Sequence record: OQ561750
Reading direction: 5' to 3' (one strand)
DNA: 64,000 nt
Source: Escherichia phage LHE83
In this document: in pieces, positions 2,751 to 59,766 of the stretch
Layout of the letters: each line of letters opens with the position of its first letter
Position numbering within the stretch: the stretch's first letter is position 1
Position numbers and translations under genes: made by a program
The notes under the pieces: generated by a model
Database searches by the model: none
What the model was told of the DNA's origin: nothing
The model's input: the letters and a program-made list of their open reading frames with translations, nothing else

Positions 2751-2961
2751 ATTGTCAATTGAAGGCTCTGATGAAGCTCTGAAGATGTTTGTTGATTGGT
2801 TCCACGAACAGGGCGAACAAGGCTTTTTGGAATGTTGGAATGGTGGACAATGGAACGGTAAAGAAACCGTTTATCCGAGCACATATATCTCTGTTCGTGG
2901 CGGACCCAACGGCCTTCGTTTAGTGGAATACGATATCGCAACTGGTGAGGAAGTAAAATGA
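2743..2961 (+). CDS. hypothetical protein
   Basis: ORF track; ATG overlapping the preceding stop. Confidence 0.5.
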   Translation: MSKLSIEGSDEALKMFVDWFHEQGEQGFLECWNGGQWNGKETVYPSTYISVRGGPNGLRLVEYDIATGEEVK

Positions 2962-3236
2962 TTGAAGATATCAAGGGTTACAAACCACATACCGACGATA
3001 AAATCGGTAAAGTGAATGCTATTAAAGATGCCGAAATTCGGTTAGGGCTGATGTTTAAAGCTCTAGAAGAAGAACATGTTACCTATTATATGAACTTAGA
3101 TACCGAAGAGGTTTCTGAACAAGAACTAGACCAGGCTCATGAACGCATTACCCAGATTCGTAATGCAATTGACCGTCTTAAAGAAGCTAGTATGTGGGCT
3201 TGTCGCTCTGTGTTCCAACCAGAAGAAAAGTACTAA
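2958..3236 (+). CDS. hypothetical small helical protein (vs-region)
   Basis: ORF track; ATGA overlap with upstream stop. Confidence 0.5.
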   Translation: MIEDIKGYKPHTDDKIGKVNAIKDAEIRLGLMFKALEEEHVTYYMNLDTEEVSEQELDQAHERITQIRNAIDRLKEASMWACRSVFQPEEKY

Positions 3237-3240
3237 AGCA

Positions 3241-3270
3241 GTTTACATCTCCTGTAGGTATGATACTATA
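3241..3270 (+). promoter_or_regulatory. early promoter cassette upstream of regB
   Basis: GTTTAC then 17 nt then TGATACTAT then CCTATCAAC; inverted repeat CTCCTGTAG/CTACAGGAG flanks the -10 and includes the Shine-Dalgarno. Confidence 0.55.
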
Positions 3271-3297
3271 AACCTATCAACTACAGGAGATTACAAA

Positions 3298-3756
3298 ATG
3301 TCAGAAATTAATTCAGAAGTATTCATCCGCCGCAATAAATTACGTCGTCAGTTCGAAACCGAATTCCGCGAACTGAATGCGTCCATCAAAAAAGCCGCCA
3401 TTAAGAGCGGAGTCCCAGCCTTCTTTATTAAGTACTCTAATCACTTGTTGGACCGTGCTATCCAACGTGAAATCGACGAAAAATACGTTTTTGCTTTATT
3501 CAAGCAACTCCATAACCATGTTAAAGAAATTCATGAATTTTTAATCCAGGAACCTCTGCCTGATGTAGAAGCCGAAATCATTCCTGGTAAAGTGTATCGC
3601 CCATTGCGTCTCGAAATTACCGATAAAACCTTATGGCTAGGTATGACTGTAGATCGTAAACATCCTGATAAAGGATACTCGTTAAAATGTCGTATGGCAT
3701 TTGTTAACTCTAAACGTTTAGAAGGTAAAACCAGCACGAAAGTAATCTATCTTTAA
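3298..3756 (+). CDS. regB: RegB site-specific endoribonuclease
   Basis: Internal ATG after the promoter cassette; MSEINSEVFIRRNKLRR...LLDRAIQREIDE resembles T4 RegB; track start 3139 runs through the promoter. Confidence 0.85.
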   Translation: MSEINSEVFIRRNKLRRQFETEFRELNASIKKAAIKSGVPAFFIKYSNHLLDRAIQREIDEKYVFALFKQLHNHVKEIHEFLIQEPLPDVEAEIIPGKVYRPLRLEITDKTLWLGMTVDRKHPDKGYSLKCRMAFVNSKRLEGKTSTKVIYL

Positions 3757-18314: not shown

Positions 18315-18565
18315 GCCTGAAATTACATTCAATGAAAAATGTCGTCACCCTTAATCTGGATGATGAGCGCCTGATTTTTCTCACCGTCACTGATAAGAAT
18401 ATTGAAATCGCCAACGGCCCGAAAACTTATTGCTGTCCTGTTAAGAATTGGAAACGTGTATCATTTCTTACTCTGACCGAACGCCTGAAAGATATTAAGT
18501 TAGATTTGGATGTCAAAGATGTCCAATACATTAAAAATCTTATTGGATACAAACTGCTGAGGTAA
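18311..18565 (+). CDS. hypothetical protein
   Basis: ORF track; ATGA overlap. Confidence 0.5.
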   Translation: MSLKLHSMKNVVTLNLDDERLIFLTVTDKNIEIANGPKTYCCPVKNWKRVSFLTLTERLKDIKLDLDVKDVQYIKNLIGYKLLR

Positions 18566-19000: not shown

Positions 19001-19201
19001 ATGAATCCTGAATCTAAATTATCACAGCGAATTGCTGAAGCTCGTCGTCAGTTCTTTGAAAATATGATAGCCCAAGGTATTGATGACGAAGTTTTTCTGA
19101 ACTGGTTTTGGAACCACAAATATTCAAGTTGTTCAGGCGCTTTATTAATTTCAGCTGCATCTATGTACGAAGGCTGGAAAGGTGCAATGAGTCAAAAATA
19201 G
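19001..19201 (+). CDS. hypothetical protein
   Basis: ORF track. Confidence 0.5.
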   Translation: MNPESKLSQRIAEARRQFFENMIAQGIDDEVFLNWFWNHKYSSCSGALLISAASMYEGWKGAMSQK

Positions 19202-19598: not shown

Positions 19599-19861
19599 TT
19601 AAAATAAAACTCTCTAATTACGATAAAAACTTGGAAATGATTGCTATGAAAGAAGAACTCTTGAATGATGTCCGCTTTACAGGTTATGCAGTTCAATTTA
19701 ATGGTGATGGGACTCTCCAGATTGAGGGTGACCACTTTATCATCGAATACGAATTTAAACAGTATTGGCTGTATGCAAAAGATGAGGTTGGCGGTGTTGA
19801 TTACGTCGACGAGTTCGATAACCTAGATGACGCATTGGAAGGAGCTCGATTCCTACAATGA
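19595..19861 (+). CDS. hypothetical acidic protein
   Basis: ORF track; ATGA overlap. Confidence 0.5.
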   Translation: MIKIKLSNYDKNLEMIAMKEELLNDVRFTGYAVQFNGDGTLQIEGDHFIIEYEFKQYWLYAKDEVGGVDYVDEFDNLDDALEGARFLQ

Positions 19862-20121
19862 AACCCATATCCACCACCCTCGCCTACGAAGGTCTCGGAT
19901 TTTTCTTAATAGATAACCGTATGGATGTTGAGTTTGTTTGTGGTGAGACTTCTTTAGTATGGAAGTCTCATATTTCCAAATACAACCATCGCGAATATCC
20001 AGGTCTTTTTAAAGAATTTTGTGGATATATGTCTGAACATGGATGTACTGATACAATTTCTTATTCCGAGTTCACACAAATCCTTGAAACCGTATTTCAG
20101 GCTTATTGCTTACTCCGTTGA
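19858..20121 (+). CDS. hypothetical protein
   Basis: ORF track; ATGA overlap. Confidence 0.5.
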   Translation: MKPISTTLAYEGLGFFLIDNRMDVEFVCGETSLVWKSHISKYNHREYPGLFKEFCGYMSEHGCTDTISYSEFTQILETVFQAYCLLR

Positions 20122-20178
20122 TGCTTTAAGCCAATTGGTATATAATAGATTCATTATTTAAATTAAAGATTAATCATT

Positions 20179-20874
20179 ATGCACTATTGTTATATGACCA
20201 CTATAAAATCCGAAAATGATACTTATTACTATTTCGGTAAACACACCGGATTTATAGATGACGGGTATGTCGGTAGTGGCAAATTCGTAGAAGATGCTAA
20301 GGCCTCAGGGAAATGCTCTTTTAATATAGAGGCCTTATGTTATTTTGAGACAAGTGAGCTTGCTTTTGAATTTGAAGAGCTTTTGGTAGAAAATGCCATG
20401 TCCGAAATAACTAACTGCGTCAATATGAAACCTGGTGGTATAGGTGGTTATGCTCCTCCGACACCGGAAAGACTTGAAGAACAGTCTAAAGAAGTTACCG
20501 AACGCTGGCAGGACCCTGAATATAAAGAGCGGGTTTCCAACTCTATTAAAAAGTCTTGGGAAAATGAAGAGCATCGAGAAATGATGCGTCGAATCCATAA
20601 AGAGTATAATGCTAATCCTGAAGTTAGAGAGGCCAAAAGTAAAAAGAACAAAGAATATTACTCTATAGAGAATTATTCCAAGTTTGCTAAAAATCCAACA
20701 TATGTATTATATGATGAGTTCCATGAACTTTGGATTAAGGAAGGACGCCCTAGTTATTCTAAATTCTGGCGCAAATGCTGTGAACTATGTTATCCATATA
20801 CGATAAATAATTTTAGACCACTAGTTGATAGGTTTAAGAGGGCTTATGAATCAGGTGAAGTTAACAAAAAATAA
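20179..20874 (+). CDS. GIY-YIG homing-endonuclease-like protein (Seg/Mob-like)
   Basis: YYYFGKHTG...YVGSGK GIY-(10 to 11 aa)-YIG spacing; basic C-terminal half; 3' end overlaps the gene 55 start. Confidence 0.55.
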
Positions 20875-21403
20875 TTATGTAAATAACAAGGAGCTTCTTA
20901 AAGCTATTACAAGTTGGAAGCAGGAATTATATGCTAACACCGACCCTAATAAAATCATTAGACAAAATGATACTATAGGATTGGCTATTATGCTTATAGC
21001 AGAAGGCCTCAGCAAGCGTTTCAACTTCTCAGGATATACCCAATCTTGGCGGCAGGAAATGATAGCTGATGGAATCGAAGCTTCGATTAAAGGTCTTCAC
21101 AATTTCGACGAAACAAAATACGACAACCCACATGCATATATCACTATGGCTTGTTTTAATGCCTTCGTTCAGCGTATCAAAAAAGAACGTAAAGAAATGG
21201 CAAAGAAATATAGCTACTTCGTCCATAATGTCTATGACAGTAATGATGACGACATGGTAGGTATTGCAGATGAAACCTTTATCCAAGATATCTACGACAA
21301 AATGACTCAGTATGAAACCTCTTTAACTAAAGCACCAGGGTCTGATAAGAGTGCCGAACCTAAAGTTGGTGAACTGGATTTTTTATATGGAACATCAGAT
21401 TAA
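20846..21403 (+). CDS. 55: late-transcription sigma factor gp55
   Basis: Internal ATG gives 185 aa; NYVNNKELL...[28 protein letters not shown] near-identical to T4 gp55 from memory. Confidence 0.9.
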
Positions 21404-21617
21404 TATCACTCCACTTTTAGATGGAATGGAAGACTTCGAAGCACTCCCTTATTTTATTAAATTGATATTACGGGATGTTAAAGGTCTTCCTATTGATATT
21501 GACCCACTTAACGTCAGGAATATTGAATTCACTTCTCCTGACAATAACGTAGATTATCGTTATCATGTTGAGAACGCTAATTTCTACTTCACTATTGAAT
21601 TGACTCCAAAGGATTAA
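21387..21617 (+). CDS. hypothetical protein
   Basis: Internal ATG of track ORF 21351; overlaps the gp55 3' end. Confidence 0.4.
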
Positions 21618-22114: not shown

Positions 22115-22172
22115 TAACGTGGACAGGCGGCTAATGAAAGACGAATACGAAAAAGTTTAAGAGGTTGTATGA

Positions 22173-32285: not shown

Positions 32286-32786
32286 ATGAAAAAGTTAATT
32301 ATCGCAATGAGTATGCTCCTATCAGGTTGCGCGGTCCAATATGGTGATACAGTTTCGGCTGATGAAGTTGGTAAAGCTCGTATCGCAGCTGAACAGAAAC
32401 AATTCGATGGCGAAATGAAATTCCGTGCAGGTTCTGGACTTGTGTACACCCGAGCTAATAATCAATGCGGTAATAACTGTGCAAAATATGCTCAACAAGA
32501 AATCGAATTCCAACGTGAACAAGAGTCCAAGCGTGAAGCGGTACTAGCCAAACACCAGGCAGAAATGAAGCGTCAAGATGATTTGTACAAAAAGCAGAAA
32601 CTGTATGCGATGTGCGTAAACCATATCAATCTACAGATTTCCATCCACGAGGCTCGTTATTACGAAATGCTCGAAACCGAGAGCTTCGGTAAAGCTCGTG
32701 ATTATAAGAAACAAATCGATAAGCTCAAGACCAAAGCACCGGCGGCAATAGAACAGTGTATTGAAATCGGTAAAGATAAGATTTAA
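32286..32786 (+). CDS. hypothetical lipoprotein
   Basis: Signal peptide with LSGC lipobox; charged helical remainder. Confidence 0.55.
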   Translation: MKKLIIAMSMLLSGCAVQYGDTVSADEVGKARIAAEQKQFDGEMKFRAGSGLVYTRANNQCGNNCAKYAQQEIEFQREQESKREAVLAKHQAEMKRQDDLYKKQKLYAMCVNHINLQISIHEARYYEMLETESFGKARDYKKQIDKLKTKAPAAIEQCIEIGKDKI

Positions 32787-32846
32787 GCAATACCAATTTA
32801 TTAAAAATAGTGTATAATGTACCTACATTCACTTGAGGAACAGATA

Positions 32847-34520
32847 ATGAAAAAGGTTGTTATTTTAGGCGCGGGTCTTGGCTCACGGTTGTATCCAATT
32901 ACCAACGAAATCCCGAAGGTACTGGTTAACTACAAACAACATACTGTATTAAAACATTTGTATGATTTGTATAGTAATCAATCAGATGAAATTATTCTGG
33001 TTATTCACAGCAAATTTAACGACCTCGTTAAAGGCTATATTAAATCCATTAACATGATTAATAGTGATAAGCCTAAATTCACTATTCGTAACGTTGATGT
33101 TGCCAATGGTTCGGCTCATGCTATCGATTGCATTGCCGAAGATATCATTGGGCACAATGTCTTGTTTAACTGGTGTGATATTATTCCTGAAGGTCATAAA
33201 GTTGAGTGGGATAACGACTACTGTTATACCTATGGGACCGACTGTCGTTTTACATTTGAAGAACCGTACTTGCGTGAAATTGGTACCGGTGGTGGCGTAG
33301 TTGGCTTGTATCAGGTGGCTAATTGGACAGGTTTCGACCGTTCTAATTATGGTGAAGACCTTGCTGACAACCTGGATTCAATGGTCCATTTGACTGAACG
33401 TAAGTTAGACTTTGTAGTTGATGTTGGTGACAAACTGAAACTGGCTAAGGCCCATGAAGATTCTGAAATTAACCGTGAATTTAATAAATTAGAGTTCACT
33501 GAGAATCTAGCTATTAAAGTACCTACAAACGAATTAGGTAAAGAAATCCAATCTAAAGAAATCAATTGGTACAATTCTATTGATTCTGAATTCGTTCCTA
33601 GCATTGTAGACTTTGCTCCAGGTGAATTCATTAAAATGGAACGTATCTTTGGTCGAACCATGGCAGATGCCTACCGGTTTATGTCTAAAGAAACTAAAGT
33701 CCTAATGGTTTATAAGGTTATTAGTGCATTACGTTCGTTCGGTGGAACTATCGATAATCCGTCCGATGAGCAATGGTATTCTGATGTTAAGAAAGAAGTA
33801 TTGGACAAGGTCCTTATTCGTAATGCTTCTATTGCCGGATTGATTGAAGGCTTTGCTCCACAGGGTATTACCCATGTTAACGACTTCAAGGTAGGCGACC
33901 CAGAAAAACTTCTTCGTCACGCCTTAGAAATTCTGTCTGAACATAAAGAACCGTACCAACTTATTCATGGCGACCCGCACTACAGTAATATTATGTTGTC
34001 GGACGAAGGTAATATTAAAATCATCGACCCACGTGGTTATTTTGGTAATAGTTCTAAAGGCCCTGCGATTTATGATGAAGCTAAGGTGCTTTATTCTATC
34101 GATGGTTATGACAAATTTAACTCTGACCCTCTATGGGGTGGCTTAACTCGTAACGGAACTCGTGTATTCGTTGATATTGAAAAGGTTATGCCTTTAGATG
34201 ATATTCCGATGTGTACATTTAAGCACAAGCTCTGGATTGCCGTTATTTGGATGGCATTGGCAGGTTACTTTAAAAATAACCCTCTGAAAGCTCTGGGCGC
34301 TTATTACAATGGGCTATATCAACTGAGTGTGCTGCTGAAGCGGCATCCTCGTAAGCGTAAGCTTATCACAGGTGAATTCGTTGATGAAGTTCGCGACCCT
34401 ATCACGGCTCAAATTATCACTCGTTGTCCTGATAAGTGGGTTTTGCTTGACCAGGAAACTGGTGTAAAATATAAACCTACAGGTTCTACCGAACTCCACA
34501 AACAATGGAAGAAAATTTAA
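32847..34520 (+). CDS. bifunctional nucleotidyltransferase / kinase (LicC- or MurU-like N-terminus, APH/choline-kinase-like C-terminus)
   Basis: ATG after GAGGA Shine-Dalgarno; N-terminal KVVILGAGLGSRLYPIT sugar-phosphate nucleotidyltransferase motif; C-terminal IHGDPHYSNIML...IIDPRGY kinase catalytic-loop pattern. Confidence 0.7.
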   Translation: MKKVVILGAGLGSRLYPITNEIPKVLVNYKQHTVLKHLYDLYSNQSDEIILVIHSKFNDLVKGYIKSINMINSDKPKFTIRNVDVANGSAHAIDCIAEDIIGHNVLFNWCDIIPEGHKVEWDNDYCYTYGTDCRFTFEEPYLREIGTGGGVVGLYQVANWTGFDRSNYGEDLADNLDSMVHLTERKLDFVVDVGDKLKLAKAHEDSEINREFNKLEFTENLAIKVPTNELGKEIQSKEINWYNSIDSEFVPSIVDFAPGEFIKMERIFGRTMADAYRFMSKETKVLMVYKVISALRSFGGTIDNPSDEQWYSDVKKEVLDKVLIRNASIAGLIEGFAPQGITHVNDFKVGDPEKLLRHALEILSEHKEPYQLIHGDPHYSNIMLSDEGNIKIIDPRGYFGNSSKGPAIYDEAKVLYSIDGYDKFNSDPLWGGLTRNGTRVFVDIEKVMPLDDIPMCTFKHKLWIAVIWMALAGYFKNNPLKALGAYYNGLYQLSVLLKRHPRKRKLITGEFVDEVRDPITAQIITRCPDKWVLLDQETGVKYKPTGSTELHKQWKKI

Positions 34521-58265: not shown

Positions 58266-59231
58266 ATGTACAATATTAAGTGTTTGACCTCCGCTGAGCA
58301 AGTTGAAATCGTTAAGTTATATATTTCTGGTAATTATACTCAGAATGAGTTGGCTGACTGGTACAGTGTATCAGTTGATACAATCCGTAAAGTCCTGAAA
58401 AATGCTAAAGGAGCTGGACAGGCCCAGGTAGTTATTACCGGAAATATCAAAGTAACAGTTCCTAACGAGCCTCGTGAAGTTCCCGTTGAAGTTACTATTG
58501 GCGGCTCTCGCCCTGAAATTATCTGGAACGCGAGTTCTAAATTCGTATCCATCACTGAAGGTCGTACAGTATGGAACACCACTAATAAGAACAAACATTT
58601 TGATGCCATCGTACAGGCCCTTAAAGAATCCCGTTTTGACGACGCGATTAAACTGATTTCCATTAAAGAAGCTGTTAAGGCCTTCGTCAAAGGTAACGTT
58701 CGTATTGAAGGTGGTCGTCTGGTTTACCAAGGCATCGAATTGCGTTCAGGGTTGATTGACCGTATTATTACTTCAATGGAAAATGGTGAAGACTTCGAAT
58801 TCTACCTGCCTTTCCTTGAAAACCTGTTAGAAAACCCAAGCGAAAAAGCTGTACAACGTTTGTTCGACTTCCTGGTTGCAAACGACATCAAAATTACTGA
58901 AGATGGCCACTTTATTACGTGGAAGGTAGTTAACTCCGATTACACCGACTGCCGTACTGGTACGTTTGATAACTCACCAGGCAAACCGGTTAAAATGCCT
59001 CGTTCACGTGTAAACGATGACGATACAGTAACTTGTTCAAGAGGTCTGCACGTTTGCTCTCGTAGCTATATCGGTGCATTCGGTAATTCAAACAACCGTG
59101 TAGTTTCATGTAAAGTTAACCCACGTGATGTTGTTAGTATTCCTGTTGATTATGGTGATGCTAAAATGCGCGTATGTTATTATGAAGTTCTGGAAGACGT
59201 TACCGATCAGTTTAAATCAGATTTACGTTAA
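58266..59231 (+). CDS. rIIB: rIIB protein
   Basis: 321 aa directly downstream of rIIA; syntenic; MYNIKCLTSAEQVEIVKLY N-terminus. Confidence 0.85.
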   Translation: MYNIKCLTSAEQVEIVKLYISGNYTQNELADWYSVSVDTIRKVLKNAKGAGQAQVVITGNIKVTVPNEPREVPVEVTIGGSRPEIIWNASSKFVSITEGRTVWNTTNKNKHFDAIVQALKESRFDDAIKLISIKEAVKAFVKGNVRIEGGRLVYQGIELRSGLIDRIITSMENGEDFEFYLPFLENLLENPSEKAVQRLFDFLVANDIKITEDGHFITWKVVNSDYTDCRTGTFDNSPGKPVKMPRSRVNDDDTVTCSRGLHVCSRSYIGAFGNSNNRVVSCKVNPRDVVSIPVDYGDAKMRVCYYEVLEDVTDQFKSDLR

Positions 59232-59267
59232 AATTAAACGGAGGCTTCGGCCTCCTAAGAGGAAATT

Positions 59268-59465
59268 ATGTTAGATTACCAAGCACGTGTAGTTGAAGAA
59301 TACGACCAGTTGGTTCTTAAAATTAATGCTCTCGAAGAGTTTATTAAAGGCGGTGTTTTTGAAACTCTTGATATCCGTCAACAAGGGTTACTGATTTCAC
59401 AACTGGATGCGATGGGTGCTTATGCTCATTGTTTAGAGGTTCGTATTTCTTATTTCGGTGAGTAA
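59268..59465 (+). CDS. hypothetical protein
   Basis: ORF track; GAGGAAATTATG RBS. Confidence 0.5.
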   Translation: MLDYQARVVEEYDQLVLKINALEEFIKGGVFETLDIRQQGLLISQLDAMGAYAHCLEVRISYFGE

Positions 59466-59466
59466 A

Positions 59467-59766
59467 ATGATTAATTACCTGAATGTCGGTGAACGTGATA
59501 TCAAGATTTCCAATTTGCGTGGGTTCCATCGTGCAGGTACTGTTTATTGTGCTAAGCTCGTTAAACACCCTGGTGATGTTCATTACGCTTTTCTAGAATG
59601 CGATGAGGTGGTTGAAGGCGAGTTTCCTTTAGTAGATTCTGATACTTTAGAACCCGACGACCGAATTTATTACGGTGAACTTCATATTCGAGGCATTTAT
59701 GGTGAAGACGAACCCGGGACTACTCCGATTGGCAGCGATGCCGACATTTACCCTGAAGACATCTGA
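59467..59766 (+). CDS. hypothetical acidic protein
   Basis: First ATG of track ORF 59458 (GTG). Confidence 0.5.
   Translation: MINYLNVGERDIKISNLRGFHRAGTVYCAKLVKHPGDVHYAFLECDEVVEGEFPLVDSDTLEPDDRIYYGELHIRGIYGEDEPGTTPIGSDADIYPEDI

Follow-up and report, generated by a model that had tools for sequence, protein, structure and literature searches.

A probable Seg-type GIY-YIG homing endonuclease gene adjoining the late sigma factor gene 55 of a Dhakavirus

Directly upstream of gene 55 in Escherichia phage LHE83 lies an open reading frame (ORF) whose 3′ end runs into this essential gene, which raises the question of whether the ORF encodes a homing endonuclease and, if so, what such an enzyme would do to its neighbor. 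The window analyzed here is a stretch of 64,000 nucleotides (nt) of that phage (sequence record OQ561750). It belongs to a T4-type phage of the genus Dhakavirus that is nearly identical to phage vB_EcoM_FB (FB); between positions 19200 and 22600, the identity is 99.0% to Escherichia phage FB and 98.6% to Salmonella phage vB_SalD_ABTNLS3 (ABTNLS3). Upstream of the ORF are homologs of T4 55.2 and 55.1 and an RB69 orf072c-like gene (DUF7200). The original prediction, made from the letters of the window, was that the ORF is a GIY-YIG homing endonuclease-like gene inserted next to gene 55. The ORF is genuine and not a chance reading frame, since it has intact homologs under purifying selection and 15,546 family representatives (E ≤ 1e-3). 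The features of the locus are listed in Table 1.

Table 1. Positions in the window of the endonuclease gene, its protein domains, and the neighboring features
Feature	Position	Strand	Description or evidence
DUF7200 gene, RB69 orf072c-like	19858-20121	+	Pfam PF23830, E = 1.8e-31; left homology flank of the insertion site
Promoter-like site	20118-20146	+	TTGATG (20118-20123), 17-nt spacer, TATAAT (20141-20146)
Insert-specific DNA, 737 bp	20130-20866	+	Alignments with FB, WG01, JS98, and MX01
Endonuclease ORF, probable Seg-type (SegF-like) GIY-YIG homing endonuclease gene	20179-20874	+	ATG start, 231 amino acids
Catalytic GIY-YIG domain, residues 1-92	20179-20454	+	Y5, Y18/G20, E66, N82, Seg-family loop
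Linker and stack of ~15-residue helices, residues 93-162	20455-20664	+	Predicted model
C-terminal helical domain, residues 163-231, helix-turn-helix-like	20665-20871	+	Putative DNA-binding module
Gene 55 Shine-Dalgarno sequence GAGG	20838-20841	+	Inside the 3′ end of the endonuclease ORF, 4 nt before ATG 20846
Overlap of endonuclease ORF and gene 55, 29 nt	20846-20874	+	Read from sequence and alignment
Gene 55, late sigma factor gp55, 185 amino acids	20846-21403	+	PHROG 234, E = 8.2e-68; gp55 alignment
Divergent 5′ tract of gene 55, codons 8-86, 237 nt	20867-21103	+	46 mismatches to WG01, pS 0.59

No Pfam or NCBIfam model matched the protein even at E ≤ 1, and a single-sequence search of PDB sequences returned only a chance match. 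Its ortholog P0002 (see below) and T4 SegF had no Pfam family at E ≤ 1 either, and SegF had one weak and unrelated NCBIfam match (E = 0.031), far below the cutoff. A word-indexed protein search retrieved three relatives only, and the family was reached by an exhaustive profile search, which yielded the 15,546 representatives as cluster representatives. The protein is matched by the PHROG 314 family "homing endonuclease" (E = 7.5e-20) and, over residues 2 to 92, by the PADLOC HEase model (E = 1.9e-12), and its top structural neighbors in BFVD are Seg-like endonucleases. T4 SegF is collinear with it, with 25% identity over 228 residues in a pairwise BLASTP comparison (E = 5e-16); the SegF alignment covers query residues 4 to 221, with a tblastn E value of 1e-6 against all phage records. 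At E ≤ 0.01, 47 of 67 profile relatives match PF19835 (SegE_GIY-YIG) and 46 of 67 match PF01541 (GIY-YIG), a link that is transitive, as the query itself is below threshold and is connected to both models through its profile relatives.

[quoted passage not shown] The two segments to which the motif had originally been assigned, YYYFGKHTG (residues 16 to 24) and YVGSGK (residues 30 to 35), are present, but the assignment was one element off. The alignment to I-TevI and the strands of the predicted model place GIY at C4-Y5-M6 in strand 1 and YIG at Y18-F19-G20 in strand 2, and YVGSG is a loop specific to the Seg family, not YIG. Y5 is found in 98 of 100 relatives and Y18 and G20 in all 100, in which E66, the equivalent of the catalytic Glu of I-TevI, and N82 are also invariant. 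The protein retains all ten strictly invariant positions of the family.

There is no Arg in residues 1 to 97, the first being R98, and R27 of I-TevI has no counterpart; in place of the segment around it stands H22-T23...D28-G-Y30-x-G32-S33-G34-K35, a stretch with little or no variation among the Seg-type relatives. Decay of the active site was rejected as the reason, since the whole Seg-type family lacks an R27 equivalent, including SegF, which shows the same replacement and is experimentally active (PMC2988022). The replacement is thus a subfamily trait. K42, a position at which 95% of the family has Lys, is Ala in the window copy and Ser in the ortholog P0004, and K41 is conserved in all three gene 55-associated orthologs.

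Behind the catalytic domain, helices are predicted at residues 96 to 111, 113 to 128, 130 to 145, and 147 to 160. By eye, residues 93 to 162 contain three degenerate repeats of the form (D/N)(P/E)E-x-(K/R)E...K..(W/Y), which may be NUMOD3-like DNA-contacting helices; NUMOD3 is matched by 28 of 67 relatives and not by the query. The C-terminal domain is presumed to be a sequence-specific DNA-binding module. The C-terminal half had been described as basic, and residues 93 to 231 are indeed mildly so (pI 8.9), whereas the N-terminal domain is acidic (pI 4.5). Cys204 (TGT at 20788), which falls within the helix-turn-helix-like domain, is private to the window copy, and the residue is Gly in FB, in all eight metagenomic copies, and in both orthologs.

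The protein and SegF are of similar length (231 and 224 amino acids) and, besides their collinearity over 228 residues and the lack of a Pfam match in both, share the N-terminal motif set Y..Y.GKH...D.Y.GSGK...E...C.N..PGG.GG and a C-terminal HELW..G.P...Y..T block. Both genes are free-standing, have an essential conserved gene as their neighbor, and are missing in close relatives. T4 segF, however, is inserted between soc and gene 56, the latter being its target (PMC2988022, citing Belle et al. 2002), whereas the window gene separates the start codon of gene 55 from its presumed promoter, so that the presumed target differs. In addition, the two proteins are only 25% identical, the window protein has Ala in place of K42, and the window ORF ends inside the neighboring gene and carries that gene's Shine-Dalgarno sequence. 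With I-TevI (structures 1LN0 and 1MK0), the protein shares the equivalent Tyr, Tyr-Gly, Glu, and Asn residues and, if its C-terminal module binds DNA as presumed, the two-domain order of N-terminal nuclease, linker, and C-terminal DNA-binding region. Unlike I-TevI, to which it is 14% identical, it is not intron encoded, has the Seg-type loop H-T...D-G-Y-x-G-S-G-K in place of the R27 helix, and lacks a zinc finger and any detectable NUMOD motif. It belongs to the same superfamily branch as the other Seg-type enzymes (SegA to SegE, SegG, and SegH; PF19835), to which its 47 matching relatives connect it. Like their genes, the window gene is intergenic, sporadic, and entangled with the expression signals of its neighbor, as described for segG, segA, and segE, in which promoters or translation signals of the neighboring gene are entangled with the endonuclease gene (PMC2988022). 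It differs from them in forming a distinct clade with an insertion site of its own and in falling below all Pfam thresholds.

Seg-like paralogs that are 26 to 31% identical occur at other sites in Dhakavirus genomes, several of them unannotated or labeled hypothetical, namely, in IME08 (115920-116534), KIT01 (115372-115896), IME281 (58978-59592), and MX01 (32397-32939, beside gene 45). Such paralogs, for example, the "putative endonuclease" of IME281, reach 29 to 31% identity by tblastn and lie at another locus than the gene 55-associated gene. FB has a second weak tblastn match to the endonuclease protein. Within the window, no second protein match was found at E ≤ 1, the remaining ones being weak (E = 3.9 to 9.7), and a family-profile search of the window ORFs of at least 50 amino acids gave no second match. 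On contig L012 (Logan DRR827119), from a metagenomic relative that carries the endonuclease gene, an extra ORF of 269 amino acids (2751-3560) lies between the homolog of a-gt.2 and gene 47; the window is without it and shows alignment gaps around 22124-22168. In T4, alpha-gt/alpha-gt.2 is the site of mobB, an HNH endonuclease gene and the one nearest to gene 55 in that phage (PMC2988022); given that site, the 269-amino-acid ORF could be another mobile endonuclease gene.

The gene is not universal at this position, as had been anticipated. Among 50,697 phage records, the protein is encoded in two only, FB and ABTNLS3, all other tblastn matches being less than 60% identical and at a different locus. 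The insert is likewise present in 2 of 700 matching records, and in the next 38 relatives among the matches listed, the flanks align in two or more pieces without the endonuclease gene. In total, 737 bp of insert-specific DNA stand in place of about 87 bp in WG01, JS98, and MX01, which comprise the native spacer, the 5′ untranslated region, and the first seven codons of gene 55. The empty site is clean in these three phages and in vB_EcoM_005 (005). The insert has a GC content of 35.7%, versus 38.3 to 38.4% in the flanks. The gene thus shows a presence/absence polymorphism among very close relatives, which points to recent movement.

Outside the window type, two diverged orthologs were found at this site, in two other lineages of Tevenvirinae. 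P0002 is 68% identical to the window protein and is encoded on contigs with flanks that match Gaprivervirus VR20 at 95% identity. The gene caller truncated P0002; on contig L006, the correct start is the ATG at position 57, further upstream, from which the protein begins MERHYCYMTT. P0004 is 51% identical and is encoded on a contig (L008) with about 77% identity to Kanagawavirus PEi20 and T4-like phages of Enterobacter and Klebsiella. VR20 and PEi20 are both without the endonuclease gene, and both orthologs sit between gene 55 and the -10 box upstream of it. Two scans of IMG/VR and a search of JGI metagenome contigs gave no further members of this gene 55-associated clade, which is rare, with only three lineages found. 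The ratios of nonsynonymous to synonymous divergence (pN/pS) between orthologs are 0.21/0.75 and 0.32/0.70, and the catalytic domain is the most constrained part (78% amino acid identity, pN/pS 0.16). Compared with copy L011, the window gene has synonymous differences in 13 codons and two nonsynonymous differences. All nine copies compared with that of the window are intact. The protein, and the nuclease domain in particular, is by these measures maintained.

The position of the gene relative to gene 55 depends on the start codon of the latter. The mechanical ORF of gene 55 opens at TTG 20825, and the public FB record (L001 3157) instead starts the gene at GTG 20855, giving 182 amino acids. 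The gp55 alignment with WG01, MX01, and JS98, together with the GAGG located 4 nt upstream, places the start at ATG 20846, from which the protein has the same length as in the relatives; the versions of L006 and L008 were aligned as well. With this start, the overlap of 29 nt noted in the original prediction is upheld, and it is kept in the orthologs (29 nt in L006 and 26 nt in L008). Instead of ending at its own stop codon, the endonuclease ORF reads into gene 55, where its TAA lies out of frame within the conserved codons 8 to 10. The last ten endonuclease codons are the start of gene 55 read out of frame, and the residues that they encode are not conserved among the orthologs. In L006, the same AAGAGGGCTTATG is present as the Shine-Dalgarno sequence of gene 55.

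The insertion may also affect the upstream signals. In a consensus scan, a promoter-like site matching the consensus at 10 of 12 positions was found across the left junction, with its -35/MotA half in DNA shared with WG01 and its -10 box in insert-specific DNA. The arrangement of TGCTTTA (20122-20128), 12 nt, and TATAAT resembles a T4 MotA-type middle promoter, of which this spacing is typical. In WG01 and MX01, which have the empty site, the same TGCTTTA box is 22 nt from TATAAT, versus 12 nt in the window, and the insertion may thus have altered when, or how strongly, gene 55 is transcribed. Since the scan revealed no promoter-like site on the plus strand within the endonuclease ORF, gene 55 is probably cotranscribed with the endonuclease gene, and the site at the junction probably drives both. 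No exact T4 late-promoter TATAAATA is visible by inspection of positions 19900 to 21500. Control of translation by hairpins was considered and rejected, as the RNA folds at both starts are no more stable than those of shuffled sequences (z = +0.89 for 20147-20215 and -0.79 for 20810-20880).

The window and WG01 are 100% identical from 19838 to 20129 and nearly identical again beyond 21103, with pS 0 and a single nonsynonymous site differing in gene 55 codons 87 to 185, and the 46 mismatches lie in between, in the 5′ tract of gene 55. This tract is an exact match to that of MX01 and differs at two sites (20938 and 21103) from that of 005, both of which carry it without the endonuclease gene, and all other Dhakaviruses are at most 84% identical across it. 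Two patches upstream, in the 55.x cluster (18400-18500 and 19750-19850), are 80 to 88% identical to WG01 in 50-nt bins amid about 100% identity; these short stretches add to the mosaic and have no relation to the endonuclease gene.

Metagenomic copies extend the pattern. The protein P0001, which differs from the window protein by N79K and C204G, is encoded by sixteen metagenomic contigs, eight of which were examined. Contigs L012 to L018 have 5 to 6 mismatches to the window in the 737-nt insert and 1 to 3 in the 237-nt tract, whereas their left flank (19838-20129) is only about 77% identical, with 66 to 68 mismatches in 292 nt, the last of them at 20091. The same nearly unchanged cassette is thus found in at least two left contexts, which suggests that it has moved between phage genomes. 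Every endonuclease-positive contig or genome of the window type that was seen bears the same gene 55 allele. In an independent lineage, the pattern is repeated, since L006 and VR20 differ at 44 positions over 918 nt, 40 of them within the first 255 nt of gene 55. The insert and gene 55 codons 8 to 86 go together as a block in different backbones, a footprint consistent with co-conversion, and the tract also occurs without the gene. The tract looks like a co-conversion tract. It is not proof of endonuclease-driven conversion, because MX01 and 005 have it without the gene, and ordinary recombination could give the same mosaic. These two phages may be ancestral carriers of this allele with an empty site, products of incomplete repair that stopped short of the insert, or cases of later loss. 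Comparing the tract boundaries in MX01 and 005, which both hold essentially the whole tract, did not narrow down the cleavage site, and across the three lineages, no position separates all endonuclease-positive from all endonuclease-negative alleles. At the end of the tract begins a block that is conserved in all lineages compared, and this shared end-point may reflect where recombination can resolve, not the cut site.

Taken together, the ORF is likely to be the gene of a free-standing GIY-YIG homing endonuclease of the Seg type, with SegF as its nearest characterized relative. The enzyme is probably active, and the 5′ part of gene 55 probably holds its target. SegE, SegF, and SegG cut the genome that lacks the endonuclease gene, often away from the insertion site, the target of SegF being the neighboring gene 56 and that of SegG being gene 32; Seg genes are then copied in by double-strand-break repair, and the flanks are co-converted, which results in localized marker exclusion (PMC2988022, PMC2330249). 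Modeled on SegF, SegG, and SegE, the enzyme would break both strands in or near the 5′ part of the empty-site gene 55 of the recipient in a mixed infection. Recombinational repair from the carrier genome would copy the 737-bp insert and, along with it, roughly the first 260 nt of the donor gene 55, and the gene 55 allele of the recipient would be replaced, giving localized marker exclusion. The carrier's own allele, with the M-type tract, is presumed to be resistant to cleavage, and the target would be in W-type alleles. Nuclease activity, the cut position, and self-resistance are inferences. Marker exclusion of the neighboring essential gene had been proposed originally, and the divergent tract that accompanies the gene is consistent with it.

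Two other explanations have to be weighed against an active homing endonuclease. The gene might be a domesticated or inactivated remnant that neither cuts nor moves and is kept for the ribosome-binding site and probably the transcription of gene 55, and DNA binding may be all that its protein does, for example, in a regulatory role like that of I-TevI as an autorepressor. The location of the gene 55 Shine-Dalgarno sequence within an ORF in which the scan revealed no plus-strand promoter-like site would fit such a role, as would Ala at position 42 in place of the Lys found in 95% of the family, the missing Pfam match, and the rarity of the clade in databases. If DNA binding or mere presence sufficed, however, the catalytic domain would not be expected to be the most constrained part of the protein (pN/pS 0.16). 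The ten strictly invariant positions, including the catalytic Glu and Asn, are also kept, nearly identical cassettes occur in different backbones, and the polymorphism among very close relatives favors recent movement, so that we consider a remnant of this kind unlikely.

Ordinary homologous recombination among coinfecting T4-like phages could also have assembled the locus, with the GIY-YIG protein as passive cargo that has another role, for example, degrading the DNA of the host or of competitors or acting against host defenses; T4 EndoII is a GIY-YIG enzyme that degrades DNA. T4-like genomes are highly mosaic, the identity of the window to JS98 and MX01 is variable, MX01 and 005 have the gene 55 tract without the ORF, and at the tract ends lie highly conserved blocks, in which recombination of any kind would be resolved. 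Chance exchange of this sort would nevertheless have to account for three diverged orthologs that all occupy precisely one site and share the overlap, which is the signature of a site-specific element, and for the strict linkage of ORF and tract in every endonuclease-positive sequence seen. The tract pattern recurs in a second lineage, and the protein is homologous not to EndoII but to Seg proteins, over its full length and thus also in the presumed DNA-binding half. The constraint on the catalytic domain, the site specificity of the three orthologs, and the linkage of gene and tract speak against both rivals, and we likewise rate passive cargo as unlikely.

Beyond the favored reading of a SegF-like enzyme homing at gene 55, a broader scenario is possible, although we hold it only tentatively. 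The SegF-like lineage would have stayed at the start of gene 55 in at least three lineages of Tevenvirinae, repeatedly sweeping a foreign allele of about the first 86 codons of gp55 through phage populations, with MX01 and 005 as resistant escapees and with deletion made costly through the ribosome-binding site and the promoter position. If this is true, a selfish gene would both target an essential transcription factor and hold it hostage.

The gene is a "hypothetical protein" in both public genomes that carry it, and standard domain libraries miss it; naming it mends the annotation, and the start of gene 55 is mended as well. The insertion sites and target genes that have been tabulated for T4 do not include gene 55 (PMC2988022), and no endonuclease gene at gene 55 was found described in the reviews and literature searches consulted. 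The understanding of how such elements work is unchanged by this locus, which is unlikely to surprise a specialist. It would add gene 55 to the essential T4-type genes that are adjoined by a free-standing homing endonuclease gene. In addition, it offers a natural data set for intronless homing, comprising an empty site, a bounded tract, two backbones, tract-only recombinants, and orthologs at the same site. For phage therapy cocktails that contain Dhakaviruses, biased inheritance of the gene 55 region would be predicted in coinfections.
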